In this document: piece after piece, positions 24,017 to 55,494 of the stretch
Layout of the letters: every line of letters starts with the position of its first letter
Numbering within the stretch: the first letter of the stretch is position 1
Virus record (IMG/VR): IMGVR_UViG_3300002042_000005
Location: 1-55,494 of that record
DNA length: 55,494 nt
Origin: a virus
Strand: one strand, 5' to 3'
Program-made: the position numbers and the translations under genes
The notes under the pieces: model-generated
What the model was told of the DNA's origin: nothing
Seen by the model: only the letters and a program-made list of their open reading frames with translations
Database searches by the model: none

Positions 24017-26107
24017 TTACCTGTTTAGTCGGCTGGCGATATCGCCAAGCCGTTTTGCTTTCACTTTCGGTTTTTTAGTGGCGGGGGAATCTGCCGACTC
24101 CGGCCGTGCCGCTGGTTCGCTTTTCTGTTGCGGCGTTGCGTCGCCTGTTCCTGTGCCTGGTCGATGGATTTTCTTGCGCTCCGGTTGATGACTCAGTGGT
24201 GCTGACAGATCGATACGAAAACGGGACTGCGCGATTTTCACGGCCGCTAAGGCACCCACCATGCAATCCAACGCCTCGACCTGCGGGTACGCCTGCTGAA
24301 AGGCTAAGATCTTCCGGCCTCTATGAATGACCGGCCGTTTCTCTTCACCCGTCAGCTGGTTGAAGTACTCCATATCAAACACGCCGTCGATCTCAGGGAA
24401 GTGAATCGATGCCGGCGTAGGATTTCCCTGCTTATCAAATAGCGGCAACATCAGCCGCTGATAGATGGCTTCCTTGGCAGTGTCCGTTCCGATCTGTGAC
24501 AGGAACACATGGTGCTCCTTATGCGGCTTGCGCGGCATGGTCACGATCGGCGCGCCGTAGGTTGAAAGCCCTTTAGTTGGAATCACAAACTTGACTCCAG
24601 CGCGCCGCGATAACCCGTACACCTGGTTGGCTTGATAACCAGAGTCAAAGCAGCACAGCAACGGCCGTAACTCCCGACCGTCCGCTAACTTAATGGGCTT
24701 ACGCAATTCCTCAATGATGGCGGTGTAGTGATCTGGATCCTGCGAATCGCCATGCAACACCAGGTGATACAGGGCAGCAGAAACTTCGTTAGGCCCATAG
24801 CCAACAAAGGTAAGCTCCGCGCGGTCTGGCTGAAGGTCAGCACCGACCGCAATCATGCGGATCCATTCCGGGCCCAGGATCCAAGGTTGCCTCGCCTTGT
24901 ACAACGGCTCCGCATCCACCTCTACTAGCGTGTCCTTGTAGAACTCGCCAAGCGTGGTGTTTATAAAACTCTGCAGTGACTCCGGATCTTTCTGCGCCTT
25001 GAACCACTCAGTGACCAGTTTCGACCAGGGCACCAACAGGTTGTACGCCGCCCACACCACAAACCCAACGTGCGACGGCCAGGGGATCTTCTCCCCGTCT
25101 TCGTTGGCTAGGTAGTACTGATCCTCGCCTTCAACAATGTACTCGCCGGTCTCCGCTTCCCAACGCCCGCGTGACTGGATTTCTTTGGCGTCCTTGAACT
25201 CCCAACGCGCACCGCACTCACCGTTACAACAAACGTAGTGCGCTGTATTTGCGTCCCTGTCTTCCCATTTGATGCCGTGAGCAACATCCTTGCCGCCCCA
25301 CTCATAGTGCTGCCGGACGCCACACGTTGGGCATGGCATCTTGAAGCGAAACACCAGGTCGGCTTCTTCTTCAGATTTTTGAATCTGACATACCCCGTCA
25401 CGCGTTGGTGATGAGCCCCGAATACTTTTCGAGTGCGGCGATTCAAACGTACGCTTGTCACCGAGAAACGTAGGCGAGCCTTCGTGACCAATGTTTAATT
25501 CAAACGCGGCCAGCTCGTCGTACGTCACTTCATCCATAGTGTCAGCGCGGTAGCTGTCCGGTGAGTGGCCGCCCCTGACATCCAATGAACATCCGATGAA
25601 AAACTTAGTCTCTAACGTGTTCTCTTTACTGTTGCGCCCGGAGCCTCGCAAGGCCTCCCTGAAACTTGGCGCGTCCCGCAGTAACGGGTCGATGGTTTTT
25701 TTCGTGTACTTCTTTGCCTGGCCATCAGTCGGGCAAAAGATCAAACAGTTACGCCGCTTGACTGTGAGCTTGTAGGCCGTATTCAAACTGTGCAATTTCG
25801 AATACCCAACCCGCGATGACTTGCGGACTGTCACTTTCTCGATGTCGTCGCAGCTCATCGCGTCGACAATGCCGGTTTGAAACGGCCAGGGTTTGAAGCC
25901 TCCCTCGATAGCCGAGCTTTCCGGCGACATGTAAAAGTTGTCGTTGTCCAAACCCCATTGCGATGCGCGCAAACCTTCGTGGGTGTGGAGCGGTCTAAGC
26001 CCTCGCTCGAGGTGGCGGTTAATCCGTTTTTGCAGCGACTCCGTTAGGCCCAAGTCGGACGCCGGCGATGGCGTTTCTTGCTGAGTAGATCTCGCTGTTG
26101 ATGGCAC
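24017..26107 (-). CDS. terL: Terminase large subunit, lambda gpA family
   Basis: 696 aa. The N-terminal QKRINRHLERGLRPL and ...PFQTGIVDAMSCDDIEKVTVRKSSRVGYSK parallel lambda A (VNRLRHFVRAGLRSL; PFQRAIMNAMGSDYIREVNVVKSARVGYSK). The start is uncertain: GTG at 26107 overlaps terS by 89 nt, and a TTG at 26053 is an alternative. Confidence 0.9.
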   Translation of the reverse strand: MPSTARSTQQETPSPASDLGLTESLQKRINRHLERGLRPLHTHEGLRASQWGLDNDNFYMSPESSAIEGGFKPWPFQTGIVDAMSCDDIEKVTVRKSSRVGYSKLHSLNTAYKLTVKRRNCLIFCPTDGQAKKYTKKTIDPLLRDAPSFREALRGSGRNSKENTLETKFFIGCSLDVRGGHSPDSYRADTMDEVTYDELAAFELNIGHEGSPTFLGDKRTFESPHSKSIRGSSPTRDGVCQIQKSEEEADLVFRFKMPCPTCGVRQHYEWGGKDVAHGIKWEDRDANTAHYVCCNGECGARWEFKDAKEIQSRGRWEAETGEYIVEGEDQYYLANEDGEKIPWPSHVGFVVWAAYNLLVPWSKLVTEWFKAQKDPESLQSFINTTLGEFYKDTLVEVDAEPLYKARQPWILGPEWIRMIAVGADLQPDRAELTFVGYGPNEVSAALYHLVLHGDSQDPDHYTAIIEELRKPIKLADGRELRPLLCCFDSGYQANQVYGLSRRAGVKFVIPTKGLSTYGAPIVTMPRKPHKEHHVFLSQIGTDTAKEAIYQRLMLPLFDKQGNPTPASIHFPEIDGVFDMEYFNQLTGEEKRPVIHRGRKILAFQQAYPQVEALDCMVGALAAVKIAQSRFRIDLSAPLSHQPERKKIHRPGTGTGDATPQQKSEPAARPESADSPATKKPKVKAKRLGDIASRLNR

Positions 26108-26603
26108 TCGCTGTCTCGGTGTCTAAGCCGAACTTCCGCTTAACCGCGGTGGAAAGTCCGTCCAGTGTCGATGCTGCCGCCGCCGCGACTTCTCCTAAAA
26201 TCGTTTCGAATAAATCAATGCGCAGGTACTGGCGCTGGCTGACCGCCATTTCAAATTCCATTTTGTCGGCCGCTGCCTTCTCGCGTCGGGCCCGTTGTGC
26301 GTTTAGATCTGCCGCCGGCGCTGCTCCGTCTGCCGCACCCCGCTGGTACTCCGACCAGGCCTGCAAGGTCTCAATCAATTTGTACTGCCCTCGCTTGTAG
26401 CGAGGAATCACGCCCTGGGAGGTCAGTTGCTGCAACCGCCGCGGATCCTTGAGGCCAACAAGACCCGCGATGGTTGCCGCGTCTACCGCTACATCCTCCA
26501 GATCCACCATGCGCAGTTGGCGAAGTACCGGTAAGTCCTTGTTTTTCTTAGCCCTTGGCGCCTTTTTTCGTACGGGCGCCTTTTTGGCCTTCGCTTTAGC
26601 CAC
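26019..26603 (-). CDS. terS: Terminase small subunit
   Basis: 194 aa with a GTG start. Lys-rich N-terminus, then an HTH-like IAGLVGLKDPRRLQQLTSQGVIP. Sits directly upstream of TerL and downstream of a repeat-rich non-coding region. Confidence 0.65.
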   Translation of the reverse strand: MAKAKAKKAPVRKKAPRAKKNKDLPVLRQLRMVDLEDVAVDAATIAGLVGLKDPRRLQQLTSQGVIPRYKRGQYKLIETLQAWSEYQRGAADGAAPAADLNAQRARREKAAADKMEFEMAVSQRQYLRIDLFETILGEVAAAAASTLDGLSTAVKRKFGLDTETASAINSEIYSARNAIAGVRLGPNGVAAKTD

Positions 26604-26707
26604 TGATGCGAAACCTAGTAGACAAAATCAAAACCGGCGAAATTTCGCGCGTCGCCAACCCGCAAGTGGCCCAGATTCGCGACACAGTACCTTTTTTGAT
26701 CAAGACT

Positions 26708-26759
26708 GGCGAATTTGACCATGAATGGCGAATTTGACCATGATCGGCGAATTTGACCA
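26708..26759. repeat. Three tandem copies of GGCGAATTTGACCA at 19-bp spacing (candidate terminase-binding / cosB-like sites)
   Basis: Exact 14-mers at 26708-26721, 26727-26740 and 26746-26759. A related 12-bp palindrome GCGAAATTTCGC lies at 26637-26648. All sit in the 189-bp gap upstream of terS. Confidence 0.6.
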
Positions 26760-26792: not shown

Positions 26793-27224
26793 TTAGTCAG
26801 ACTCACCACTCTCACTGTCATTGGTTGAATCTGTGGTGCCTGTGCTGTCTGTGCCGCTGTCAGTGCTGCCACTGTCTGCAGCTGGTGCGGCCGCCTGTGC
26901 TTCGTACTCTGCTAGGCGCCCCTGCGCTAGCTCTAGCTCTGCCTCATGCTCTGCCACGGCTGTGGTCAGCTCATCTATTTTCAACTGCTCTTGTGCTATG
27001 CGGAGCTCTAAGGCCTCGCGCTCGAGGTCACGCACCACCACGGCTACTTCGCCAACATGGCGCTCAATGCGGCCGTGCTCGCCAATGGCATCCGCCCAGC
27101 CCTCTGTCATGCTGTAGGCGACACAGCCCGCTATACCCTCGCCCTCTACAGAGACGGCTATCTCAGAGAATAGATGGGGGCTACCTTTTGCGCTTGCGCT
27201 TCTTGGTATTTCGTTGGTTTCCAT
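26793..27224 (-). CDS. Hypothetical coiled-coil protein with a Ser/Thr/Asp-rich tail
   Basis: 143-aa ORF. The centre is LEREALELRIAQEQLKIDELTTAVAEHEAELELAQ and the C-terminus is low complexity. Confidence 0.5.
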   Translation of the reverse strand: METNEIPRSASAKGSPHLFSEIAVSVEGEGIAGCVAYSMTEGWADAIGEHGRIERHVGEVAVVVRDLEREALELRIAQEQLKIDELTTAVAEHEAELELAQGRLAEYEAQAAAPAADSGSTDSGTDSTGTTDSTNDSESGESD

Positions 27225-27339
27225 ATCTGTGTCCAGTTAATTTAGTGAGCAGACCGAGGCTCACAACGCATGTGCATGCGAAGACAATCCCCAGCTGGTC
27301 TGCAAGAGAGGGGTTAATCAAACGTGGGTTGGGCTCTTG

Positions 27340-27831
27340 TTAAGAGTCGAGAAAGGAGATAACAAGGCGAACGTCTTCACGGCGCTCATGCAAAACGGTG
27401 GTTGGGCTGAGATCGCCCCCTCGTTCCCAAGCCACTAAGCGAACGTCATAGTCACCAACATCGGGCTGTGTCGTTGCAAGGCCTAGGCGTAGCGCTATCG
27501 CGCCGTCTTCAACCTGGCTGGTCTCAATATTGAAAACCCCGCCTGACAGATTGGTCGACTCGTGCAAAACAGAGAATGCAGGCTCTGCAGGCGGTGTGTA
27601 GCCATCAGTTCCGGTATTCGCCGTGACATCACTCAGCCAATCTAAATACTCGGCGTAGCTCCGAATAGCAACCCTGGCCTTATCGACCAATGACCATTTG
27701 AGCGGGCCGACACTCTTGTGAGAATCGTATCGAAGACGATCCGCTCGGATAGTAATCACGTTGTCGTGCCCACGATAAACATTGCGACGAACAATGCGTT
27801 GCGCGGTATCGTTTAGAGAACTAGCCAACAT
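27340..27831 (-). CDS. Hypothetical protein
   Basis: 163-aa ORF in the late-operon cargo block. No family recognised. Confidence 0.5.
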   Translation of the reverse strand: MLASSLNDTAQRIVRRNVYRGHDNVITIRADRLRYDSHKSVGPLKWSLVDKARVAIRSYAEYLDWLSDVTANTGTDGYTPPAEPAFSVLHESTNLSGGVFNIETSQVEDGAIALRLGLATTQPDVGDYDVRLVAWERGGDLSPTTVLHERREDVRLVISFLDS

Positions 27832-27874
27832 AGCGAACTTCCAGAATTGCAGAGTGAAACAGAACTAACGGTGG

Positions 27875-28264
27875 CTACGGATCCCTATACTCGATCTGCG
27901 CCGCGCCAACATTGAACTTAGACGCTGCAGCCAACCCAGTGAGCTTGGTTCGACCAGCCAACGCCATATCGAAGCCCGCCAGGATCTTTGTTGCAGAGCA
28001 GTAGCAAAACCAATCGGTATCACCGCCGCCGGTACCAACATCTAGGTCTGCCTTGGCGTTGAGTATCAGCTTTCGTCCGCTGACATCACCGTTAGCCAGC
28101 GAGGTATCGGCAGACACAAAGGCAATACTTGATAGCTCGTTAGCTGTTGCTGCAGCAAGGTCAGCTGGTTGACCCAAGCCCTTGACGGCCTTCAGCGTAG
28201 CAACCTGCGCCTGAAAGAAATCCGGTCCTTTGTCCAGTACTTCCGGATCTATAAAATCACCCAT
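27875..28264 (-). CDS. Hypothetical protein
   Basis: 129-aa ORF directly downstream of the 1088-aa gene. Confidence 0.5.
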   Translation of the reverse strand: MGDFIDPEVLDKGPDFFQAQVATLKAVKGLGQPADLAAATANELSSIAFVSADTSLANGDVSGRKLILNAKADLDVGTGGGDTDWFCYCSATKILAGFDMALAGRTKLTGLAAASKFNVGAAQIEYRDP

Positions 28265-28274
28265 GAAATTGCTC

Positions 28275-31200
28275 CTAGTAAATCTGTATCGCCAGACGTT
28301 CGCCGGCGCTAATTAGCTTCTCGTCTGCCGCCACCGCCGGCGTTGGCGGTGTCATCGTGACAACCACGGCCATTCCGCCAATGGGTATGACTGGTCGCTC
28401 TTCTGGTACCGGCGCGGTCATCGCCGTGACAACCGCCATGCCGCCAATAGCAACCTCAGGCCTAGCGGACGGATCCGCCATCGTTGTGACAGCCGCTATC
28501 ACCATCGAACCAGGATCAGCCATCGGCAATACGGACGGATCCGCAATCTGCGTTTCTACCTCAATCGCCAGCGTGCCCAATTCCGCGTCAATCACCTGCA
28601 TGTTGATCTGCAGCGTTGTGGGTAGTGTACGGCCGTCTGGCAACGTGATTTCTAGATCTACCTCGGTGAGCCCATCTGGCAATGCGCCAGTCAGCATGTC
28701 ACCAGCCAGCGTCAGGCCTGCAGGTAATCCGCCAGGCGTTGCAATACTCCAGCCGGCGCCCGAACTACCTTGCTCCGACTCCGGCACTCCCAGCACTGGG
28801 TAGAGCGTACTCAGATCTATGTTCACTGCGTTGCCGGCAAACAACTGTACGGGTATAGCCGCTTCAATCTCGCGCGGGTAAAACCATTCTCTGACTGCGG
28901 CGCCGTAGCCTGTGCCATCGTTGAAGGCAATCATCACGCTTTGCGGCATCGCCCCGCCGTCAATTTCGACGTGGCCATTTTCAAGCACCGTGATCGGGTT
29001 GCCCTCTATCGTGTGCGTTGGCACCGTGACCTGGCCGTTAGCGCCCCAATTTGCGGTTCCCATTGGCGTAGAGACAACAGCGCCGAACTTGGTCACCTTG
29101 AACCCGGTAGGTGCGCCGTAGTTTGCGTTTCGCTCGAGCCCGTTGGGTGTCGACACCACAACCGGCCCTTTGTACAGCTCCGTCATGTCGGGCGTAAACG
29201 TGACTGTACTGGCGTTGGTCTGCGAAGCGGGAACTTCGGTAAATATCCCGAACACATCCGCGACTCGAACCGTTGGTGGCGCGTAGTCGCCAGAAAACTG
29301 CAGGGTGTTTACCCCTGGAATGATAGACGCTATACCCACGTTGCCGTTGAGCATGCTAATGCGGAGCGGTTCAAAACCACTGGATCCGATCGCGCTAACG
29401 CAACCAACGCCCATGTCATTGCTCTGCGCAATCATGCCATCAGCGAAGTACATGGCGTTTCTGTGTACAGATGACGGTATCACCGCGATCACCGCACCGT
29501 TGACGCGAATGCGGATCAGCCCGGTAACCTTGTTGTACTCTAAAGCAACCTTGGTGCCTGTCGCGAGCGGTACCGACGCAAGCGCGTAGGTCACGTTTCG
29601 ATCGACGCCGTTAACGCGCTCTTTGAACTCGATGCGTCGCGGGTTGCCATCGGTATCTGCAGCCAGTGTCAGAAACAACGCGTTATTGACGTCGCCATTA
29701 AAAAACAGTGCCGGCAACGTATTGTCGTTCGGCCGCGGGTTCGAAATAATCACCGCCGCCAACACCGTGTCAGCCGTCAGCTGATCACGCGTGTTCATCA
29801 CAATGGATTCTTGGCCAAGGTTCACTTGTTTAACGCAAGTGCCCATACCTTCCCAGGCCTGACCCGACATTTCCTGGTAGGGCGATTCCCAAACAAAGGC
29901 GCCCACGGGCTTAATCAACGACACCGCTTGCTCTGTGCCGATGTTGTCGACAATAGTTAACGCAAACGTCTCTTGCGCAGTGTTGGTGCCATCGCTGACA
30001 GAACGCACAATCGAATACACGCCAGAATCCTGCGTGCCATCCAATTGGATCGCGCCCGTTGCTGGGTTGATGGCGTAGCCCTCTGGCAACGCGGCGCCGT
30101 CCAGGGTGGCACTCCAGGTACCCATCTGGTTGCCGGCGTCGGTGTACGCCCCGGCCGCTATCTCATGCGGGCCACCACGCACGGCCATTTCTGCGCCTTG
30201 CGTCGACGTGATTACCGGTGTGGTTGAATCAATAAGCACAGACGGCGCGCCGAACAGAGCATCCGCCGCCGCTGGGTCCAGCCTGGGGTCATAGGCCGCA
30301 TCGGTTGTCAGAATGATGCCGTCGATGATCGTGCCATCTTCGCGCATACCAACTTTGAGCTCGTTGTCACCCTCAATGGCACTCAAGGGCCCAACCATAT
30401 CCCACAGCCAGGCGCTTTGCGGCGGGCCATAGTTTGCGTTTAGGTACGGCTCTTCGAAGCCCATCCACGCGCTGTTTTCTGAGTTATCAGACGCCCACAT
30501 TTTCACCCAGGCATATACCGTTTGCGCAGTTGCGGAATAGATCCGGTAAACCATGAGGGGATGCAAAGACAAACCTATGTCTGTGCCCTGGCTTTGAAGC
30601 GTGCCGTTGATCGGCAGAGCACGCATGTAGCTCCCGCCGATGGACCCGGCTACTGCGGATTCCTCCACCCACGCGTGCGATCCAACACTACCCGTCGTGA
30701 TTCCAGTGTGCGCGTTACTGTCGATTACCCACTTTGTGTCATCGGCCGCGGTAACGTCGTACGCAAACAGCTCCGCAAATACGGGAATCGTGGCGCTTAA
30801 CGTCTGCCAAGAGCCGTTGTAGTACACGTCATAGAACTGGATATCAGGACCAGTGCCGGTGTTGATCGCCACTCCATTGACGTACTCAACCGTCCCGCCG
30901 TTGGTGTCGTGCTGTTCGATTTGCTCAACAAGCTGGCCGTTAACGCTGACGCCCGGTAACTGACCGCCGAGTAGCTCAGAAGGCTGGCCATGCAACACGC
31001 CGCCAGGTCGAACCGTCAAGTCCCCGGTACCGGCGGCAATCGATGATCCACCCGTTATCTCTAGTGAGATAGACACGCCTGTTTCTATCCGAAGCCCGGC
31101 TTTATCGAGGGGGAACGGCACAGTAACAATGCCGGGGTTGACCTGCGTAATGGTTGCGGCAAGCAACTGCCCGTTGATGTTCAAACTAACGTCGGGTGTT

Positions 31201-31541
31201 GCTGCGAGATTCACGTCCGTTGTGACAGTGATTAGTTTGCCAGCGTAGATATCGCCATCGACGGTCAGTGCGCCTGTGCCGCCCCCTGCACCCGCCACCG
31301 TGGCCGAAATAATGAGGTATTGGCTTGTGGCTTCGTCGAACTGATACAGCGTCACCGTGGCCGCGTTCGGCCCGGTATTCGTTAGGACACCATCCGTCCC
31401 CAGACTAATCGTACCTGACGCGGTGGTACTGAGAATGACATAGCTACCCGCCACCAATTGCGGCACAGCACCGCCCGCGAGCGTGCCCGCGAGTGTTACG
31501 TCGGTACCGCCCGAAGGCGGGGTGCTGGTGTAATTAACCAT
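28275..31541 (-). CDS. Large multidomain beta-rich protein with putative Ig-like (He_PIG-type), ConA/LamG-like and CBM-like segments
   Basis: 1088 aa with no signal peptide. Segments include GVYSIVRSVSDGTNTAQETFALTIVD, LPAGLTLAGDMLTGALPDG, an ALFLTLAADTDG...VALEYNKVTGLIRIRVNG region and SAWMGFEE...REDGTIIDGIILTTD. The C-terminus has three repeats of IGGMAVVTAMT type. Confidence 0.6.
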   Translation of the reverse strand: MVNYTSTPPSGGTDVTLAGTLAGGAVPQLVAGSYVILSTTASGTISLGTDGVLTNTGPNAATVTLYQFDEATSQYLIISATVAGAGGGTGALTVDGDIYAGKLITVTTDVNLAATPDVSLNINGQLLAATITQVNPGIVTVPFPLDKAGLRIETGVSISLEITGGSSIAAGTGDLTVRPGGVLHGQPSELLGGQLPGVSVNGQLVEQIEQHDTNGGTVEYVNGVAINTGTGPDIQFYDVYYNGSWQTLSATIPVFAELFAYDVTAADDTKWVIDSNAHTGITTGSVGSHAWVEESAVAGSIGGSYMRALPINGTLQSQGTDIGLSLHPLMVYRIYSATAQTVYAWVKMWASDNSENSAWMGFEEPYLNANYGPPQSAWLWDMVGPLSAIEGDNELKVGMREDGTIIDGIILTTDAAYDPRLDPAAADALFGAPSVLIDSTTPVITSTQGAEMAVRGGPHEIAAGAYTDAGNQMGTWSATLDGAALPEGYAINPATGAIQLDGTQDSGVYSIVRSVSDGTNTAQETFALTIVDNIGTEQAVSLIKPVGAFVWESPYQEMSGQAWEGMGTCVKQVNLGQESIVMNTRDQLTADTVLAAVIISNPRPNDNTLPALFFNGDVNNALFLTLAADTDGNPRRIEFKERVNGVDRNVTYALASVPLATGTKVALEYNKVTGLIRIRVNGAVIAVIPSSVHRNAMYFADGMIAQSNDMGVGCVSAIGSSGFEPLRISMLNGNVGIASIIPGVNTLQFSGDYAPPTVRVADVFGIFTEVPASQTNASTVTFTPDMTELYKGPVVVSTPNGLERNANYGAPTGFKVTKFGAVVSTPMGTANWGANGQVTVPTHTIEGNPITVLENGHVEIDGGAMPQSVMIAFNDGTGYGAAVREWFYPREIEAAIPVQLFAGNAVNIDLSTLYPVLGVPESEQGSSGAGWSIATPGGLPAGLTLAGDMLTGALPDGLTEVDLEITLPDGRTLPTTLQINMQVIDAELGTLAIEVETQIADPSVLPMADPGSMVIAAVTTMADPSARPEVAIGGMAVVTAMTAPVPEERPVIPIGGMAVVVTMTPPTPAVAADEKLISAGERLAIQIY

Positions 31542-33204
31542 TTATGATGCGCTGAGGGAACGGGCCGAACATGTCAGCGTATTGCCCGCCCTGCCCCCAA
31601 TCCCTGTACGTTTCGATGATTGAAGGCATATCCCACGTACCGTTTGTTACCGAGCTAAAGCCGATATTCGTGCAGAAGCTGGACACTGGAACAATGGTGT
31701 TGAAGTACCACACCATGTCGCGAACGTTCCAAGGCCGACGATCACCCGCAGCCAATCCGTAAGGATTAGGAATGATCGCGGGGTCCGGCTGCCCTCTTTG
31801 ATTAACACCCTTCTCCGCGTTCTTGGAATCAATCGACACATCAACCGGCAAGCCTGCGTTTAGGTGGCGCTCCATTCGTGCGCTGAAGTTTCGCGCGTTG
31901 GGCTCGACCAAACACGATTGGTCGGCAGGGTTACTGTCGCCACACGTACCTTCAAACGTTTCGATATCAGGCCAGCATTGACCGGCGCCAACGTCTTCCC
32001 ACTCTTGAATCGACACACCGTTATCGAAGGGCGAGGTTTTACCAATGTTCACCCGGCGACCGTTGGCATCGCGGGGCGCGGCGTTAACCATCGCTTGCAA
32101 AGCGTTCAACTGGCCGCGCATGTGTTGCTGCACGCTGAAACCTGGAGGCAGAACGCTGCCAGTGAACGACTCCGACGCAATGATTTGACAGATACCTGGT
32201 TCATTACCGAACCGCTTAACAAACGCCGTCATAAACGCGGTGTTCAACGCCTCAGACTCCGCCAAATCCATGCGATACACCCACGCGCCACCGGATGTTG
32301 CTCCATCGAAACGGAAACCAAAATCGTACGTGTTCGGATCACCACTAGAGTTTCGTGCTATGCGCGGCAGACAGTCGGTTGTTGCAGTAAACGACCACGC
32401 TACCTCGACGCGTATCTTAAGCCGCCCTTGAGTTACCAACGGATCGTTAAGCATGTCGCTGAATCCGTCTAACTGAGGGTGGTTCCAACGGTAGTTGCTG
32501 TGCGTATGGTCAGCCATTTCCGCGACACTCATTGGAATTCGAGAGTCAACAAGACAATCTTTCCATTTGATCAACAACGCTTGGATTGGATACACGTAGT
32601 CATCAAACGCATTAGGCGCACCTTGAATTACCGGCTCCACGTCTTGGTGGTAGCGCTGTTGCATCGCGCCCGGCTCGGGGTAGTTCTTAAGGTTGCCGTT
32701 GATTAAGTGACGGATGCCCAACCCTTGGTAGTGTCGAATACCAGGGAAGTTGCCAACGTGTTCTGTAGGCACGGTAAAACTCGCGTTTTGCGGGTTGCCT
32801 GCACCGGTCGGCTTAATCTTTGTGGGTGTGTGATCGATCTTCCCTGAGAAGTTGCCGCCACCTTCGTCAACCACGTCTTTGATGGGGAAATCTTCCGAGC
32901 GACCACCTGGGGATTCTTCCAGGTTGACGCCTGGTTGCGCGCTCGGATCTTCGTCGGCGGTGAACGGTACATCGGTTGCGCCGAACGGGATAGGCTGGCC
33001 ATTGTTGATGCTGGTGATAGGCACGTTGCCGCCCTCCATTTTGTGAATCATGTCAGCGAACACTTCGAACGCATCACCCAAGCGTTTTGCTCTAAGTCTG
33101 CCTTCGTCGTCGTCGTCTGCTAGCGAGTTGTGTACGTCACTACGGTAGTAAACAACTTTCTCCGTCAGCTCGCGGTGCGCTTCGATGTAGTGGTTTTCAA
33201 TCAT
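31534..33204 (-). CDS. Large hypothetical protein (possible enzyme)
   Basis: 556-aa ORF with no signal peptide. It overlaps both neighbours by 4-8 nt. No family recognised. Confidence 0.55.
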   Translation of the reverse strand: MIENHYIEAHRELTEKVVYYRSDVHNSLADDDDEGRLRAKRLGDAFEVFADMIHKMEGGNVPITSINNGQPIPFGATDVPFTADEDPSAQPGVNLEESPGGRSEDFPIKDVVDEGGGNFSGKIDHTPTKIKPTGAGNPQNASFTVPTEHVGNFPGIRHYQGLGIRHLINGNLKNYPEPGAMQQRYHQDVEPVIQGAPNAFDDYVYPIQALLIKWKDCLVDSRIPMSVAEMADHTHSNYRWNHPQLDGFSDMLNDPLVTQGRLKIRVEVAWSFTATTDCLPRIARNSSGDPNTYDFGFRFDGATSGGAWVYRMDLAESEALNTAFMTAFVKRFGNEPGICQIIASESFTGSVLPPGFSVQQHMRGQLNALQAMVNAAPRDANGRRVNIGKTSPFDNGVSIQEWEDVGAGQCWPDIETFEGTCGDSNPADQSCLVEPNARNFSARMERHLNAGLPVDVSIDSKNAEKGVNQRGQPDPAIIPNPYGLAAGDRRPWNVRDMVWYFNTIVPVSSFCTNIGFSSVTNGTWDMPSIIETYRDWGQGGQYADMFGPFPQRIING

Positions 33205-35654
33205 TGAGCGATCCCTATTAAGGTTTCGAATCCAGTGTGTGCGGTATGGCGGTCGATCGTGTTAAGTGGTCGAAGGCCTGCGTTGTGCGAGTACTCCTGG
33301 TTAGGAGACTCATCGGGGTACATGTCGCCTTTGGTACCCAACTCATAGCCAAAGTAGTCGTCTGGTACCACGGTTTTGATGGCCGCGTCGGTAGCGGGCG
33401 CGTCTTTCACGCGTGCAAGTTCCGCCACTTCGATAATCGCCTGGCGCATGCCAATGCCAAAGCAGGCCTCACCAATGCGCAAGGTATCTGTTTGCGGGTA
33501 ACCGCTATCGGCTTCGGTGTGATAAACGTTTCGACCTGGCTTGAACAGGTAGCCGTCCAGCTGGCTGTGCAGGTGGCCGGACTGTCCGAGTATCGGTGTC
33601 CATGGCCAGTCAACCTCATTGGTGCCAATCGTTTGCGGCGTCTTGTTGACGTTCATCCGCGGGAAGCCATCGGCTGGAGTGGTTACACCTGGCACCGTGC
33701 CATCGTTGATTTTAAAGTGGCTTGGATCCGCACCGTCCATTCGAACGGCCAGGTCATCGTAATCCGGCGGCAGTGCGCGGCGTGACTCTTCCATGATTCC
33801 GTAGAACACGGTCCAGATAAACGACATGTCTTGCACGCCGGCAGGGCGTTGCTTCGCGGTACCAAAACCAGAGAGGATCTGACCGCCGGCCAAATCGTCA
33901 TCGAACATAACGGAAAAGTCCGGTGTCGCGTGTCCGTTGTACGGGCCATATAGCGCGCCTGGTGCTCTTGTCTTCCAGTCCGCCACCATGTCACGCAACC
34001 GTTTTGGCAACGCGTTCGCGGCAACCAGTATCAGATTGAAGTTTGGGTAGGGGTTAGGATCTTCGGGCATCCATTTCCAGATGGGTGTGAGCTGCGGATC
34101 ATCGCTTGAGCTCAAGGTCGTGAGCATCTTCAGCCAGTTGGCCGGGTACATACCCGCCACCGCGTTCTGCTTCACCAGATCTTCTTCCCTGGACACTTCA
34201 TCGCGTAGCGCAACGATCAACGGGCCAGTGAAGTTGTTCGCCGCGGCCCAGGCGTCAACCGCGTCAGTGTGCGCAACCAGTGCCGCCGGCGGCGTAGCTG
34301 GTGGGTTGTCCCAATCGCTTGCGTCAACGCCCGTCCAGAATCGCGAGGTGTAGTACGGCGCCATCATGTGTGCTTCGAGCGGCGCGTTAATGCCGCGGCC
34401 TAAGTACTCCGGGCCTGAATACAAACCACCCAACACACGCGGCTCATGATCAGCGCTAGGTACTGGGTTGTTGTTCTCATCAAACCCGGTTGGCGTCATG
34501 CCAAACATTTTCTTCTTGCGCCAGAACCGATCTTTCCAGGCTTTGCGGATCGCCGGCGAGGTTGGCAACGCGTCGAACGCATCGCCCGCCACCGAATCAA
34601 TAATCATGTTGTCGTGCGAGAACGCGATACGCGCGTGACTGTACTGGTCCGGCATATCAAGCGCCGGCACGGTGTGCGCCACCGGCACGGTTGTGATTCC
34701 GCCGTCAACGTCGCGGACCGATACCAGGCCTTCGTAAACGCCAGGCGTTAAACCTTTCGCGGCAAAGATCGATAGACGTAGCTGAAAATTCTCGTTTGGC
34801 TGAACGGTGTCCGCGGCGTTTTCGGCGGAGTCGCGCCAGAACGCGGGCCAATGCGTGCCCAGCCCAGGCCTAGAATCAGCCAAGCCGTCAGGACCGTCCG
34901 GCGACTGCATGTCTTCGCGCTTTTCCCCGTCTTCATCTCGGTTCCCATGGAAGTGACTGTGCGCGCAGAGCTGCGGCAAGTAATCCGCCAACCAGATCCG
35001 AATCGGCCGGCCGGCTTCGTTGTCGTAATCCGACACGCCACCGTTGCTGATGGTCTCGGCGCCACCGTTGCGCGTAAGCGTTATGTTTTCAGGTTCATGA
35101 ATCGTGAACGCTTCCGCCACGCCAGTGGCTGACTCAAGGATGATCCGAGCTGAATGACTCCAATCGCCTCGAGGGTGAATTGTCTTGATGGTGGTGCCAT
35201 CCCACACCGGTGAGGTTTCGGCGCCGTCGACGTACGTTTGTTCGCGCTTAATGCCTTTGAACGCAGACATGCCGCACGCTTTGAGTCGGGTTGAGGTGGC
35301 CGATACAGGCAGGGTGGAGTGCTTGCCGTCCGGGCGCTGGGTTGTGTCGTGAGCAGGCAAGTCAGCCTCCTGTGATGAAGTTTCGCACGCTAGAATTTGC
35401 CGGGCGACGGTTGCAAACAAATCAGAGGCGGCTTGGAAACTGGTAACACCAGGCAGCCTGTCGACAACCGCCTGCAGGTGCGCCGCGGCCGCGTGCTGCT
35501 TGCCTTGTTTGAGGACTTCCACCCAGCCTTCAGCAAAACGTCCTTGCTCGGTTTTGTGGGCCTCGAGCTGGGGTGATTCAACTTCAGCATCAAGCAAGTA
35601 CAGCGCTGACTCGCGGCAATTGCGTGCTACTTCAGTGAGATACGCGTTAGGCAT
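33201..35654 (-). CDS. Large hypothetical protein, possibly glycan-active (beta-sandwich plus barrel-like layout)
   Basis: 817-aa ORF with no signal peptide. The segment FQLRLSIFAAKGLTPGVYEGLVSVRDVDGGITTVPVAHTVPALDMP resembles N-terminal sandwich domains of DUF4091/GH123-like proteins. This is from memory and low certainty. Confidence 0.5.
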   Translation of the reverse strand: MPNAYLTEVARNCRESALYLLDAEVESPQLEAHKTEQGRFAEGWVEVLKQGKQHAAAAHLQAVVDRLPGVTSFQAASDLFATVARQILACETSSQEADLPAHDTTQRPDGKHSTLPVSATSTRLKACGMSAFKGIKREQTYVDGAETSPVWDGTTIKTIHPRGDWSHSARIILESATGVAEAFTIHEPENITLTRNGGAETISNGGVSDYDNEAGRPIRIWLADYLPQLCAHSHFHGNRDEDGEKREDMQSPDGPDGLADSRPGLGTHWPAFWRDSAENAADTVQPNENFQLRLSIFAAKGLTPGVYEGLVSVRDVDGGITTVPVAHTVPALDMPDQYSHARIAFSHDNMIIDSVAGDAFDALPTSPAIRKAWKDRFWRKKKMFGMTPTGFDENNNPVPSADHEPRVLGGLYSGPEYLGRGINAPLEAHMMAPYYTSRFWTGVDASDWDNPPATPPAALVAHTDAVDAWAAANNFTGPLIVALRDEVSREEDLVKQNAVAGMYPANWLKMLTTLSSSDDPQLTPIWKWMPEDPNPYPNFNLILVAANALPKRLRDMVADWKTRAPGALYGPYNGHATPDFSVMFDDDLAGGQILSGFGTAKQRPAGVQDMSFIWTVFYGIMEESRRALPPDYDDLAVRMDGADPSHFKINDGTVPGVTTPADGFPRMNVNKTPQTIGTNEVDWPWTPILGQSGHLHSQLDGYLFKPGRNVYHTEADSGYPQTDTLRIGEACFGIGMRQAIIEVAELARVKDAPATDAAIKTVVPDDYFGYELGTKGDMYPDESPNQEYSHNAGLRPLNTIDRHTAHTGFETLIGIAQ

Positions 35655-35660
35655 CGCCGC

Positions 35661-36089
35661 TTAACTCTCAAACCCAATCGACTGACGGAAGCGCCGGTAC
35701 GCGTGCGGATCCCAGGTGTCTAGGGTGTCGTTGGTTGCTTTCACGAACTCGTGAAAATCACTGGGCTGGCAGGGTCGATCTTCAGCGCGGCAGACATCCA
35801 GAATGGCTTCGATTTGCTCGCCGGCCAGGCCATGGGATTCCATCGTGCCAACGGCCGTGGCTGCCGCTTTCACAATGCCGGCAATCTTTGGCGGTAACAC
35901 GCCGTCCACACCTTCGCGCACGCTTTGCACCGCCTCTAAAAATCCGGCGCTGTCGCCGTTGTTGTGCGCTTCCCACGCAGACATACCGCTCAATACGGTA
36001 TCCATCGCCACGCCAGCAATCGGCACATACGCTTTAACAAACGGGGTTAAGACTCTCGCCGCCCCAGAGATCGCAGTTAGGATGCTCAT
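35661..36089 (-). CDS. Hypothetical protein with weakly hydrophobic helices (weak holin candidate)
   Basis: 142 aa with segments ILTAISGAARVLTPFVKAYVPIAGVAM and IAGIVKAAATAVGTM. ATGA overlap with the upstream lipoprotein gene. Confidence 0.4.
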   Translation of the reverse strand: MSILTAISGAARVLTPFVKAYVPIAGVAMDTVLSGMSAWEAHNNGDSAGFLEAVQSVREGVDGVLPPKIAGIVKAAATAVGTMESHGLAGEQIEAILDVCRAEDRPCQPSDFHEFVKATNDTLDTWDPHAYRRFRQSIGFES

Positions 36090-36715
36090 TGTTGGTCTCC
36101 AACGTAGGTGGCGCGCCAGTGGTACATTTCGTGCCGCAGTTCTTTTGCGCTCACGGTGTTGAAGTGCTCAAGCGCTCGCCGGGTTTCTCGTGCCATGCCA
36201 TGCGCGCCTGCAGAATCCGGGAACGTTTCATCCAGGCCAACCGGCTGCACGCCAATCTTTGTGCCACATCGGTTGACGAACTCTTTGGGTAACAGGTGCC
36301 AATTCTCTCGGACCTTCGCAATGTCCACCGGCGCAAGCGTTCCGATATCGGCATTGTCCAGCAGTTCGTTTGCGTCTTCGCGCTCAGCCACAAAGGAATC
36401 CATCAGATCCGTTTCAAGCTGAGGCTTCTGCAGCCCGCGGCCGTTGGCAGTGATCGCTTCCAGGAAGGTGCCCATCGATCGGAGATACTGCTGGAGCTTG
36501 TCCGCTTCTTCGGTGCGCAGCTGTCCGTTCAAGGTTAGTGCACACCAACTGTAGGTCAGTGAGTCATGGGCGCGTACCGCCTCAAGAAACACTTGCATGG
36601 GCCTGGATTGATCTTGGGCAACCGGCTTGTAGCCCAGCCTGCCACAGCTCGAGGTCAGCAGCAGTCCGGAAACGAGCACCAAAATATGCACGGTTTTATG
36701 CGTTAGAAATTTCAT
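36086..36715 (-). CDS. Putative lipoprotein
   Basis: Start set at MKFLTHKTVHILVLVSGLLLTSSC (ATG 36715), which has a signal peptide and a lipobox-like LTSSC. It begins 8 nt after the endolysin stop. Confidence 0.55.
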   Translation of the reverse strand: MKFLTHKTVHILVLVSGLLLTSSCGRLGYKPVAQDQSRPMQVFLEAVRAHDSLTYSWCALTLNGQLRTEEADKLQQYLRSMGTFLEAITANGRGLQKPQLETDLMDSFVAEREDANELLDNADIGTLAPVDIAKVRENWHLLPKEFVNRCGTKIGVQPVGLDETFPDSAGAHGMARETRRALEHFNTVSAKELRHEMYHWRATYVGDQQ

Positions 36716-36723
36716 CGGTTTTC

Positions 36724-37230
36724 TCAGTAAGACCACATCCGACGTTGCCCACCCCGCAGGTAGTCGCATAGATCGGTGTGGAAGAATCGCCCAGGGGCTG
36801 CCCCGGACTGGTTGATGCCTACCCCAAGGAACGGGCCAGGCAAGTTTTCGAAGATCTCCCAGGCGCGGTTGAAGCTCGCGCCCTGGTCGGAGGCTTCCCC
36901 GGTAGTGTGGGGACCGTTGGGCCCAGTGGAGCTAACTTTCTGGTTGTACTCCGGGCAACGCCAGCCGCTGTTGATGTTGAGCGGGAAGCCGCAGTGATCG
37001 CGGAAGGCGTTTAAACAATAGATGTATCGGTAGGTCATCTGCTCTTTGCCGCAGCACGAGCAGAAAAATTCTTCACGACTGAAGTACTCGAAGTCACCCC
37101 ACTCGGCCGGCGCAATCAGCCGACGCTCAAGCATCACGCTGGCAGGGATCTCTAGGCCTGAGCTAAACGCCTGGATTTCGCCAGGCACAGTTGATTCGCC
37201 CGATCTTAGGGGGGCTGATGCGGTTGTCAT
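36724..37230 (-). CDS. Endolysin, peptidase M15 (zinc D-Ala-D-Ala carboxypeptidase-like) family
   Basis: 168 aa. Motifs SGWRCPEYN, HTTGEASD (H-x6-D) and FFHTD. It is the first gene after the late regulator and tRNA. Confidence 0.75.
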   Translation of the reverse strand: MTTASAPLRSGESTVPGEIQAFSSGLEIPASVMLERRLIAPAEWGDFEYFSREEFFCSCCGKEQMTYRYIYCLNAFRDHCGFPLNINSGWRCPEYNQKVSSTGPNGPHTTGEASDQGASFNRAWEIFENLPGPFLGVGINQSGAAPGRFFHTDLCDYLRGGQRRMWSY

Positions 37231-37342: not shown

Positions 37343-37418
37343 TGGTAGCGCTGAACGGACTCGAACCGCCGACCTTCGGGTTATGAACCCGACGAGCTAC
37401 CAACTGCTCTACAGCGCA
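37343..37418 (-). tRNA. tRNA-Met (anticodon CAT), initiator-type
   Basis: 76-nt cloverleaf folded by hand: TGCGCTG TA GAGC AGTTGGTA GCTC G TCGGG TTCATAA CCCGA AGGTC GGCGG TTCGAGT CCGTT CAGCGCT A CCA. It has three G:C pairs closing the anticodon stem, A11:T24 and a 1:72 mismatch. The D-arm through variable region is close to E. coli tRNA-fMet. Confidence 0.9.
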
Positions 37419-37437: not shown

Positions 37438-37458
37438 AAAAAAACCCGCCGGAGCGGG
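37438..37458 (-). terminator. Rho-independent terminator between the late regulator and the tRNA
   Basis: The minus strand reads CCCGC TCCG GCGGG followed by TTTTTTT. Confidence 0.65.
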
Positions 37459-37568: not shown

Positions 37569-38126
37569 TCACCACCGGTTTTTATCTTTGGTGTTCAGCT
37601 GAAGCTTGCCCGCCTCCCAGAACGTCAAGCAGCTTTGGATATAAACCAGCGCCGCTTCCCATTTTTTCTCTACCGTTGGCACGCTGCAGCCCATCCGCTT
37701 CGCCACGTCAGCCAGCGTCATGGGTGTGGCCCACAGCTCCGCCACCAGGTACGGATCTGGACCAAACTCGTGCTCTTTGAGCTCTAGCATGATGCGCTTC
37801 ATCACCGCCTGGACTTCCGTCAGTTGAACATAGGTGGCCGGCTCACTGCCGGCCGTCTGGCGGGTTTCGTTACCGCCTACCGTTTTCTCAACAGGCAAGC
37901 CTGTGTCGTACTGCAGCTCCTGGTCGTAATAGGTCCGACCTACCTCGCTGCGCTCCAGGAACTTTTCCTTGGCAGCCATCATCGGCGGCAGATTGGTTTC
38001 GGCCGCGCCTTTCTTCCAGTCCAGCAGCAACCACTTCACCGTCTGCCGGTAATCGCTTTGCCGTTGCGCCTTCGCTTTGATGCGCGCGTCACGTTCTTCC
38101 GCTGGGCTCGAATCCGAATTACTCAC
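37569..38126 (-). CDS. Putative late-gene transcription regulator (Q position) with a sigma-70 region-4-like HTH
   Basis: 185 aa. The C-terminus MTLADVAKRMGCSVPTVEKKWEAALVYI is HTH-like. It is the last gene before the terminator, tRNA and lysis genes. Confidence 0.45.
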   Translation of the reverse strand: MSNSDSSPAEERDARIKAKAQRQSDYRQTVKWLLLDWKKGAAETNLPPMMAAKEKFLERSEVGRTYYDQELQYDTGLPVEKTVGGNETRQTAGSEPATYVQLTEVQAVMKRIMLELKEHEFGPDPYLVAELWATPMTLADVAKRMGCSVPTVEKKWEAALVYIQSCLTFWEAGKLQLNTKDKNRW

Positions 38127-39681: not shown

Positions 39682-40208
39682 AGCGCCAGCCCTTCTGTCA
39701 TTGTGGTTTGATTTTCATCCATTCGTCTTGCGTACTCCGCCAGGCACAACGCGTTAACCAGGCCGGCTTGCGGTGTCGTGCATTTCCCAGGGCGGGTATC
39801 CGCCCAATCAAACCAACGCTTGGCTATGGTTTCTGCTTCGTGCAACGTTTTGTCGCTACCCAGCAGTACGGTTTTCTTCCAGGTGGAGGCGATGACGGTG
39901 TGAATTGTCAGCCCGCGCGATTCCACCATGCCTTCCAGCTGACCAAAGCTGCGCATGACTTTAGATACAGTGGAGACGGGTACCGGGTTGTCCCGCTGGC
40001 CGCAGTGGTCGCAGATCTCGCCCCGCCCTGCGCCAACCATTGACTTTTCGAGCGCCACCACCGGTTTGTATTCATCCAGCAACCGGCCAAGCTCGCGCAA
40101 ATTTAACGTGCCGTCGAAGCGAGGCAAGAACACACACCGATCGCTATTTGTTCCGACCAACGCGTAACCGCCACGGCTGCCTGGGCTAATGCCTAGCGCC
40201 GGCCTCAC
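39678..40208 (-). CDS. RuvC-like protein (Holliday junction resolvase fold) with non-canonical active-site positions
   Basis: GTG start at 40208 overlaps the upstream TGA. The N-terminus ALGISPGSRGGYALV resembles RuvC LGIDPGSRxTGY with Ser where Asp is expected. VVALEK follows, and the C-terminal GLVNALCLAEYA sits where the D-A-x-A-x-A motif is expected. Confidence 0.5.
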   Translation of the reverse strand: MRPALGISPGSRGGYALVGTNSDRCVFLPRFDGTLNLRELGRLLDEYKPVVALEKSMVGAGRGEICDHCGQRDNPVPVSTVSKVMRSFGQLEGMVESRGLTIHTVIASTWKKTVLLGSDKTLHEAETIAKRWFDWADTRPGKCTTPQAGLVNALCLAEYARRMDENQTTMTEGLAL

Positions 40209-40438
40209 AAGAAGCGACCCGCTGCAAGAATGACCACCGTTAACGCAATCAGAACTAACTGTGCGATCGCCGCGACTTGCCAAAGCATCGCTCGCCGTGC
40301 ATACATTTTTGCTCGCGAAACGACGGCATAGTGCATCGCCTCTGTGATGCACATTGTCTCTGGCGGTTTTTTGTCATCAGGAAGAATAAGCACGATCACC
40401 CCCTGAGCCATCGGCCCACACACCCCAACGGCGCTCAA
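40205..40438 (-). CDS. Small tail-anchored membrane protein
   Basis: C-terminal TM WQVAAIAQLVLIALTVVILAAG. The start is ambiguous (40438, 40411 or 40354). Confidence 0.45.
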   Translation of the reverse strand: MSAVGVCGPMAQGVIVLILPDDKKPPETMCITEAMHYAVVSRAKMYARRAMLWQVAAIAQLVLIALTVVILAAGRFL

Positions 40439-55095: not shown

Positions 55096-55446
55096 GTGGC
55101 ACTAACACGACGCAATATGCTTAAAGGGTTGAGAGGCGCGCTATTGCCGGTTGCGACGGCGCTTGCCTGCAATTCAAGCAAGGCCCTTAAGCTGGAAGAC
55201 ACGGTAGCCAAACCAATCGGCAACTGGCATGGGATTGGGGTAAGGACTCTTCAATCCGGCGGTCTCGTTAAGTTGCAGAAAGGAGAAAAAATCCTCGGCG
55301 TCTCCCTGCCATACAGGTACAAGCACCCACAGATGCCAATTGAGTTGTTTATCGATCCGCGACTTGGAGAAGTGAGAGTTTCAGAAGGCGGTAAAAATAA
55401 CCGTATGCCATCGGTAAGTCATCGGACCGATTCGGAGGAAAGCTAA
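55096..55446 (+). CDS. Putative Tat-exported lipoprotein
   Basis: GTG 55096 (AAGGAA 8 nt upstream). The N-terminus VALTRRNMLKGLRGALLPVATALAC has a twin-arginine motif TRRNMLK plus a lipobox ALAC. The stop codon ends at the first base of the right att repeat. Confidence 0.55.
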   Translation: MALTRRNMLKGLRGALLPVATALACNSSKALKLEDTVAKPIGNWHGIGVRTLQSGGLVKLQKGEKILGVSLPYRYKHPQMPIELFIDPRLGEVRVSEGGKNNRMPSVSHRTDSEES

Positions 55447-55494
55447 GTGATTGATTTGCTGATGTTTGGTTGGCGGAGCGGACGGGACTCGAAC
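55446..55494. repeat. Right copy of the 49-bp terminal direct repeat (candidate att core; tRNA-Asp-like 3' end at 55471-55494, minus strand)
   Basis: Identical to 1-49. The window ends at the repeat boundary, so any continuation into the 5' part of a tRNA cannot be seen. Confidence 0.9.

Follow-up and report, generated by a model that had tools for sequence, protein, structure and literature searches.

We examined the late region of a phage genome held as IMG/VR virus record IMGVR_UViG_3300002042_000005, positions 1 to 55,494; this whole stretch of 55,494 nucleotides (nt) is referred to below as the window. About 9 kb of it, between an endolysin gene with an adjoining lipoprotein-like gene and a repeat-bearing gap before the terminase genes TerS and TerL, is occupied by six open reading frames (ORFs) on the minus strand. 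An earlier note on this DNA, made from the letters alone, had singled out these ORFs of 142, 817, 556, 1088, 129 and 163 amino acids (aa) as tightly packed genes without N-terminal signal peptides. Their coordinates, strand and lengths proved exact, and the block reads as follows in the direction of transcription.

35661..36089, minus strand: 142-aa small partner, weakly hydrophobic at aa 13-29 (peak hydropathy 1.51); no family matches
33201..35654, minus strand: 817-aa acidic protein with a helical N-terminal region of ~95 aa, a unique middle of ~330 aa and a conserved C-terminal region of ~370 aa
31534..33204, minus strand: 556-aa protein with a phage-specific N-terminal region of ~150 aa, followed by an unannotated, enzyme-like domain of ~400 aa
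28275..31541, minus strand: 1088-aa acidic multi-domain protein with He_PIG immunoglobulin-like (Ig-like) domains
27875..28264, minus strand: 129-aa ORF with a good Shine-Dalgarno sequence (TAGGAG); no homologues
27340..27831, minus strand: 163-aa ORF; no homologues

The six-gene block and its conserved gene order

The spacing between consecutive genes of the block is 6, -4, -8, 10 and 43 nt, which bears out the tight packing. A strong hydrophobic N-terminal segment was found in none of the six proteins, in agreement with the reported lack of signal peptides, and the 817-, 556- and 1088-aa proteins are all acidic. Within the block, no promoter or terminator signal rose above shuffle expectation.

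The base composition of the block matches that of the structural genes (GC content, 0.566 versus 0.572; GC at third codon positions [GC3], 0.632 versus 0.630), and codon use is correlated between the two sets (r=0.92). Because composition and codon use equal those of the structural genes, we regard the block as a resident part of the genome, and its arrival as a recent insertion was ruled out on these grounds. LESphi3, which is the nearest isolated relative when TerL is compared (37% identity), has just one gene, of 0.7 kb, in the ~0.9 kb between Rz and TerS. The 9 kb at this position in the window are therefore genuinely extra. The earlier note had called the block unusual for this type of phage, and the wider searches agreed: there was no match in PHROGs, and none was obtained when the three large proteins were compared by tblastn with 50,697 GenBank phages, or by megablast.

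Two further origins were considered and rejected. No block protein resembles another protein of the same phage, which leaves no paralogue within the genome, and for the 817- and 556-aa proteins as paralogues of each other hhalign returned a probability of 0.1%. A classical lambdoid moron of the bor or lom type does not fit either, given the lack of promoter or terminator signals of its own, the native composition, the tight or overlapping genes and a gene order that is kept in three divergent contigs. We read the block as an accessory part of the late operon that has been conserved as a module, and not as a random moron.

The evidence for conservation came from a word-indexed search of 5.8 billion proteins, which returned no homologue of the 817-aa protein and one each of the 556- and 1088-aa proteins. 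The order 817-556-1088 recurs in two metagenomic contigs from uncultured phages, designated L001 and L004, at 23-32% protein identity. L001 (13.7 kb) carries early genes, a Peptidase_M15_4 endolysin, a lipoprotein (LLLQGC), proteins of 132, 502, 106, 483 and 966 aa, three small genes and TerL. Its correspondences with the window are listed below.

L001 132-aa protein (4662-5060) and the window 142-aa protein: 28% identity over 116 aa, E 4e-12
L001 502-aa protein and the window 817-aa protein: first ~110 residues only, E 4e-5
L001 483-aa protein and the window 556-aa protein: E 2e-9
L001 966-aa protein (P0005) and the window 1088-aa protein: 32% identity

The 142-aa partner is thus conserved beside the module in L001. 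The TerL of L001 matches phrog_979 and phrog_2, and BLAST detects no similarity between it and the window TerL; because the two belong to different TerL families, the same module lies between lysis and packaging genes on two backbones. The shorter contig, L004 (3.3 kb), has the order 817-556-1088, and its positions 3-1025 align with the C terminus of the 817-aa protein (23% identity over 352 aa, E 2e-9). A full-length homologue of the 556-aa protein, P0018, shares 30% identity with it. Across the 817-aa family, the N-terminal helical domain and the C-terminal region are kept, and the insert of ~330 aa occurs only in the window. In the 1088-aa family, whole domains have been gained and lost between the 1088-aa protein and P0005. 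As the order is conserved at 23-32% protein identity, long-standing selection on the module is indicated.

No further module loci came to light when IMG/VR and JGI metagenomes were scanned with five queries, and the module is rare in current data. The earlier note had named, as the outcome that would speak against it, an ordinary tail-fibre or tailspike family with the same placement in many relatives. No such family was found, and the placement recurs in one relative only.

The domain family of the 556-aa protein

We built a profile from the 556-aa protein and its homologue and used it for an exhaustive HMMER search of 1.84 billion representative sequences. This search collected 79 clusters at E<1e-3, 32 of them at E<1e-30, all of which align to residues ~150-556 of the 556-aa protein. 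When 41 long members were aligned, E345 and P280 proved invariant, and R157, W214, D232, Y238, W240, N241, D379, R384, D459, N480 and W499 are conserved in 83-98% of members. The 556-aa protein of the window keeps every one of these invariant and conserved residues. The family, ~400 aa in length, is not in Pfam and has no relative in PDB by sequence.

The long members mostly begin with N termini that resemble hydrophobic or twin-arginine signal peptides, as judged by eye; one family member has a sub-threshold match to the Pfam family TAT_signal. Some members also contain Big_13, Bact_surface_Ig-like, fn3, TSP_3 or Y_Y_Y modules. A homologue in a Chloroflexota metagenome-assembled genome (L003 1699-3252; 27% identity to the window protein) has a hydrophobic, membrane-anchor-like stretch, VAIVLGLCILFGAALVIGVL, ahead of the domain, and it was the sole match among 185,579 species genomes with the patterns used. 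When a cellular member of the family was searched against plasmids, no match was obtained.

Two members of the family are structural proteins of phages. In P0019 (L005 660-5999), a phage protein of 1779 aa, the domain is present twice in tandem and a gp25 baseplate-wedge domain forms the C-terminal part; its gene sits in a T4-like baseplate cluster beside gp6-like, wedge and Peptidase_S74 fibre genes. P0029 is encoded by the last large gene of a podophage virion module that also holds an SU10-type adaptor and an ejection protein. Its C-terminal part matches proteins of Stenotrophomonas myophages annotated as whisker, capsid decoration or virion structural proteins.

The phage versions carry extra conserved N-terminal regions (~95-150 aa) that are absent from the cellular homologues. 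In the window 556-aa protein and its L004 homologue, a phage-specific region of ~150 aa, made of a helical hairpin and then a beta-rich stretch with a conserved TG-x-GNP motif, stands where the cellular homologues have the signal peptide. Searches of the phage-specific N-terminal regions against Pfam and PHROGs matched no known adaptor.

Because of the signal-peptide-like N termini, the Ig-like modules and the contexts of P0019 and P0029, the ~400-aa domain is probably secreted by bacteria and mounted on particles by some phages. By analogy, this pattern is the one in which polysaccharide depolymerase domains behave. Judging from these sequence features, a carbohydrate-active catalytic domain is the probable identity of the ~400-aa domain. 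A low-confidence model of the 556-aa protein shows alternating strands and helices with E345 at a strand end, and our impression, which goes no further than that, is that it could be compatible with a sugar-active barrel.

Family searches and the surrounding late operon

When the six block proteins were compared with Pfam, PHROGs v4 and NCBIfam at strict and lenient thresholds, He_PIG was the only family recovered. The earlier note had described the 1088-aa protein as combining Ig-like repeats of the He_PIG type with a ConA/LamG-like and a carbohydrate-binding module (CBM)-like segment. The first part of this description held. PF05345 (He_PIG) matches aa 443-530 with 25.4 bits against a Pfam cut-off of 24 (E 2e-5), a second stretch is recognised as He_PIG at the lenient threshold only, and in the homologue P0005 He_PIG falls just under the cut-off (23.9 bits). 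In PDB, a profile of the 1088-aa family returned only a marginal match to an Ig-like surface-protein repeat (E 0.2). The LamG/ConA and CBM assignments did not survive, as neither family was found by Pfam at E<=10. An N-terminal domain of P0005 and L004 was tried as the CBM-like segment in question and rejected, since it is undetectable in the 1088-aa protein.

For the 817-aa protein, a beta-sandwich likeness to DUF4091/GH123 glycosidases had been proposed. We could not reproduce it: DUF4091 (PF13320)/GH123, like LamG and CBM, was absent at Pfam E<=10 from the whole proteins and from the halves of the 817-aa protein, and neither phmmer against PDB nor a 3-sequence profile of the protein returned a glycosidase. 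The GH123 likeness stays a lead only. PADLOC gave no match at E<=0.1 for the six block proteins and two flanking proteins.

The window ends, 1-49 and 55446-55494, are the same 49-bp direct repeat, which leaves a genome of ~55.4 kb. Because this repeat is common to both contig ends, the genome is circularly assembled and probably complete. The late genes lie on the minus strand in the order known from lambda; those around the block and in the tail region are listed here.

37569..38126, minus strand: candidate Q-like late antiterminator, weak match to phrog_79 'anti-termination protein Q-like' (E 2.9e-4)
37438..37458, minus strand: intrinsic-terminator-like hairpin (CCCGC-tccg-GCGGG) followed by T7, between the Q-like gene and the tRNA; read directly
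37343..37418, minus strand: tRNA-Met (CAT), found by ARAGORN; Rfam RF00005, 64.3 bits
36724..37230, minus strand: endolysin of the M15 peptidase type; PF08291, E 2.4e-6; phrog_894 endolysin, E 4e-17
36086..36769, minus strand: lipoprotein-like protein of 227 aa, with a hydrophobic segment at aa 27-45 followed by Cys
27181..27321, minus strand: candidate 46-aa ORF with a single transmembrane (TM) segment and a basic tail (KKRKRKR); hydropathy 2.29 over aa 4-30, a mechanical prediction
26793..27224, minus strand: very acidic, coiled-coil-like 143-aa ORF upstream of the packaging region; sub-threshold matches only
26695..26759, no strand assigned: 19-bp tandem repeat, 3.4 copies, minus-strand sequence TGGTCAAATTCGCCNNTCA; TRF score 95
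26019..26603, minus strand: small terminase subunit TerS; phrog_57, E 3.6e-20; Phage_Nu1, E 2e-5, under the Pfam cut-off
24017..26107, minus strand: large terminase subunit TerL; ~37% identity over 95% by tblastn to TerL of lambda-like Pseudomonas phages
8039-12484, minus strand: J-like central fibre protein, by PHROG search
4231-7980, minus strand: 1249-aa fibre-like protein downstream of the J-like gene, with a Gly run and a repetitive N terminus rich in Ala, Asp and Gln

The block had been placed downstream of a late regulator, a terminator and a tRNA, and this arrangement was recovered: the Q-like gene (by its weak phrog_79 match), the hairpin with T7 and the tRNA-Met were all located upstream of it. 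A consensus terminator scan overlooked the hairpin and T7 at 37438-37458, though they are visible by eye. The comparison of this site with the position of Stx toxin genes was imprecise. The Stx flanking region, with the Stx genes, lies upstream of the lysis genes; the block lies downstream of the endolysin, in what corresponds to the bor-to-cos position of lambda.

The M15 endolysin has no signal or TM segment. From Met19 the lipoprotein-like 227-aa protein reads MKFLTHKTVHILVLVSGLLLTSSC; it has no family match in Pfam, PHROGs or NCBIfam, and its gene shares 4 nt with the next gene. Neither a canonical holin nor an Rz/Rz1 spanin pair is recognisable beside the endolysin (36086-37230), and the lysis system of the window is atypical for that reason. 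A 77-aa ORF with two TM segments lies at 40205-40438 on the minus strand, far upstream of the endolysin, and overlaps other ORFs. On the other side of the block, what looks like a gap between the genes for the 163- and 143-aa proteins contains the 46-aa ORF at 27181-27321, which may encode a small membrane or holin-like protein or may be spurious.

The 19-bp repeat (26695-26759) lies within a gap of 189 nt just upstream of TerS. By analogy with the R sites of lambda cosB, it is a candidate terminase-binding (cosB-like) site. After TerL come ORFs sized as expected for portal and head genes, an assignment by size only, and a 932-aa ORF holds the tape-measure position, an assignment by position only. 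The 1249-aa fibre-like protein has no PHROG match, and the 368-aa and 142-aa genes that follow its gene are likewise orphans. A recognisable Shine-Dalgarno sequence is missing from most genes of the block and its neighbourhood, with a clear TAGGAG only at the 129-aa gene. This scarcity at late genes may be informative about the host.

Reading of the block, its rivals and its meaning

We compared the block with known phage systems in which proteins act on, or bind, extracellular glycans. In phage phi24B, the gene of the NanS-p-type esterase gp84 lies apart from the structural modules; the protein was for long taken for cargo and has been shown to decorate the capsid via a small N-terminal domain (bioRxiv 10.64898/2026.04.10.717836). 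As with gp84, the genes of the block are late genes that do not belong to the head or tail modules, and a putative catalytic domain follows a small N-terminal region that is phage-specific. Unlike gp84, the block shows no sequence relation to that system, as neither DUF1737 nor the SASA esterase family was matched by Pfam in any of the six proteins; the likeness would lie in the mode of action only. The two differ further in their genes: one gene in the Stx flanking region accounts for gp84, whereas the block consists of three large and several small genes downstream of the endolysin, with products that are putatively virion-associated.

For the depolymerase TP84_26 of phage TP-84, free and virion-bound forms coexist (PMC10131341). 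The block shares with such depolymerases of capsule or exopolysaccharide (EPS) the possession of large late proteins without export signals, and extracellular polysaccharide would be the putative target here. Known depolymerases are usually encoded in or beside the tail module and belong to recognisable fold families. The block, in contrast, has no recognisable family and lies beside the lysis and packaging genes; since it is neither within nor adjacent to the tail genes, its assignment by position as a tail-module depolymerase was rejected.

Clusters of multiple tailspikes or branched receptor-binding proteins, such as TSP1-4 of CBA120, gp63.1 and gp66 of G7C and those of Klebsiella phage phiK64-1, are encoded by tail-module genes and use T4 gp10-like adaptor domains. 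The block resembles them in its consecutive large genes and in its combination of conserved N-terminal and exchangeable C-terminal parts, as seen between the 817-aa protein and the 502-aa protein of L001 and in the gain and loss of domains in the 1088-aa family. It differs in that no known adaptor domain was detected and that the backbone is that of a lambda-like siphophage, which already has a J-like protein and a fibre. T4 Hoc and T5 pb10 are Ig-like accessory proteins of the virion surface; they bind glycans or mucus, assembly can proceed without them, and their genes sometimes lie apart from the core head genes. Both are ~40 kDa or less and non-enzymatic. The 1088-aa protein, unlike these, is far larger and is accompanied by two other large proteins, and no match to the Hoc or pb10 families was found in Pfam or PHROGs.

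Taken by its sequence features, the block is probably a new kind of accessory that targets a surface sugar coat. Within this frame, we tentatively propose that the 817-556-1088 triad and its small partners may constitute an unrecognised conserved module of siphophages, encoded next to the lysis genes, whose products would form a glycan-binding or glycan-degrading assembly on the capsid or tail. The ~400-aa domain would then represent a new family of carbohydrate-active enzymes common to secreted bacterial proteins and to baseplate, tail and decoration proteins of phages. As a whole, this proposal is possible and still doubtful. For one of its parts, namely that the phage-specific N-terminal regions fix the proteins to the virion and that any surplus is released in free form, we see a real chance that stops short of probable.

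In the proposed sequence of events, Q-type antitermination would let transcription pass the terminator that precedes the tRNA, and the block would then be transcribed together with the genes for lysis and morphogenesis. The three large acidic proteins and their small partners would build up in the cytoplasm late in infection and, because none has an export signal, would reach the outside only at cell lysis. There, their targets would be glycans of a surface or matrix. Catalysis would fall to the 556-aa protein; the 1088-aa protein would serve as binder or scaffold through its Ig-like (He_PIG) modules, and the 817-aa protein as a further subunit with a catalytic or a binding role. In the 817- and 556-aa proteins, the phage-specific N-terminal regions would stand in for the cellular signal peptide and tether these proteins to the capsid or tail of the virion, or to each other. 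The progeny would in this way be equipped to bind or degrade polysaccharide of capsule, EPS or matrix, and excess unassembled protein would be freed at lysis.

The earlier note had proposed that the large proteins bind or degrade glycans. This general idea gains indirect support from the contexts of the 556-aa domain family, from its two structural members in phages and from He_PIG, whereas the specific folds it had named (GH123, LamG and CBM) found none.

Several results weigh against an assembly of glycan-active proteins on the particle. Pfam and PDB profile searches assign no fold or catalytic family, and PDB searches with single sequences and with profiles gave no meaningful match. AlphaFold2, run on input alignments of one or two sequences, returned unusable models for the 817-aa protein as a single sequence (predicted local distance difference test score [pLDDT], 32.6) and for the 556-aa protein with one homologue (pLDDT, 36.8), and a Foldseek search of PDB with the latter, low-confidence model found nothing below E 0.09, which is noise. 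The N-terminal regions show no similarity to the virion proteins of this phage. A docking motif common to the N termini of the 817- and 556-aa proteins was tried and discarded as not significant (22 columns, P 0.044). Packaging and head genes separate the block from the tail genes, and the tail has J-like and 1249-aa fibre-like proteins of its own. The module has been found in three contigs only. Finally, the place of the block inside or beside the lysis cassette suits a lysis-linked role equally well.

One such role is that of free enzymes or binders that are released by lysis and never enter particles, a public good or spread factor that would strip capsule, EPS or matrix from debris and neighbouring cells, thereby freeing progeny and pre-conditioning hosts. 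We consider this possible, on the doubtful side. It would explain why the proteins lack signal peptides and why the block is distant from the tail genes and directly follows the endolysin and lipoprotein genes in both contigs with context; the signal-peptide-like N termini of most cellular homologues of the 556-aa domain, as expected of secreted proteins, and the soluble depolymerase forms of phage TP-84 (PMC10131341) also agree with it. A free enzyme would have no obvious need, however, for the conserved extra N-terminal regions of ~95-150 aa. The same domain also occurs within structural proteins of two other phages, and the co-conservation of three large genes suggests an assembly. Release could alternatively serve lysis itself. 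The proteins would then exit through holin lesions together with the endolysin and dismantle an additional envelope layer (capsule, sheath, S-layer glycan or EPS) from inside, in the manner of LysB of mycobacteriophages. The tight or overlapping packing of the endolysin, lipoprotein, 142-aa and large genes, the same order after the endolysin in L001 and the atypical lysis system all fit such an extension of the lysis cassette. We nevertheless judge it quite unlikely: at 9 kb the block would be a very large lysis accessory, the 1088-aa protein with its several domains, among them Ig-like ones, resembles a binder or adhesin more than a lysis factor, and the domain relatives in other phages belong to virion modules and not to lysis cassettes.

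A function unrelated to glycans appears unlikely as well. The block could encode anti-defence, host-takeover or internal, ejected virion proteins, or be the decaying remnant of a foreign tail-fibre cluster, and it is true that two of the three large proteins have no informative homology, that enzyme activity is putative and that domains have been inserted or lost among the 1088-aa homologues. An anti-defence role finds no echo in PADLOC, however, and the intact ORFs with native codon use, together with a gene order kept at 23-32% protein identity, point to selection over decay. The context of the 556-aa domain family, furthermore, is extracellular or at the virion surface.

That phage proteins target extracellular glycans is already familiar; what is new is the set of protein families, their organisation in three genes and their position next to lysis genes on two backbones. 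By analogy, the block probably works like the depolymerase and decoration systems of phages. If the proposed glycan-active assembly is true, it would add an enzyme-like family of 79 clusters, with no relative in Pfam, PHROGs or PDB, that is apparently secreted by bacteria and mounted on phage particles. Following phi24B gp84, it would also provide a second case in which the genes for glycan-active proteins, virion-borne or extracellular, lie apart from the structural modules, and depolymerase-mining tools and annotation pipelines confined to the vicinity of tail genes would miss such proteins. Putative enzymes of this kind are of practical interest as new activities of the depolymerase type. 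For the phages themselves, a conserved multi-gene unit on the lysis cassettes of two backbones would bear on how they escape from, and enter, capsule and biofilm matrix.

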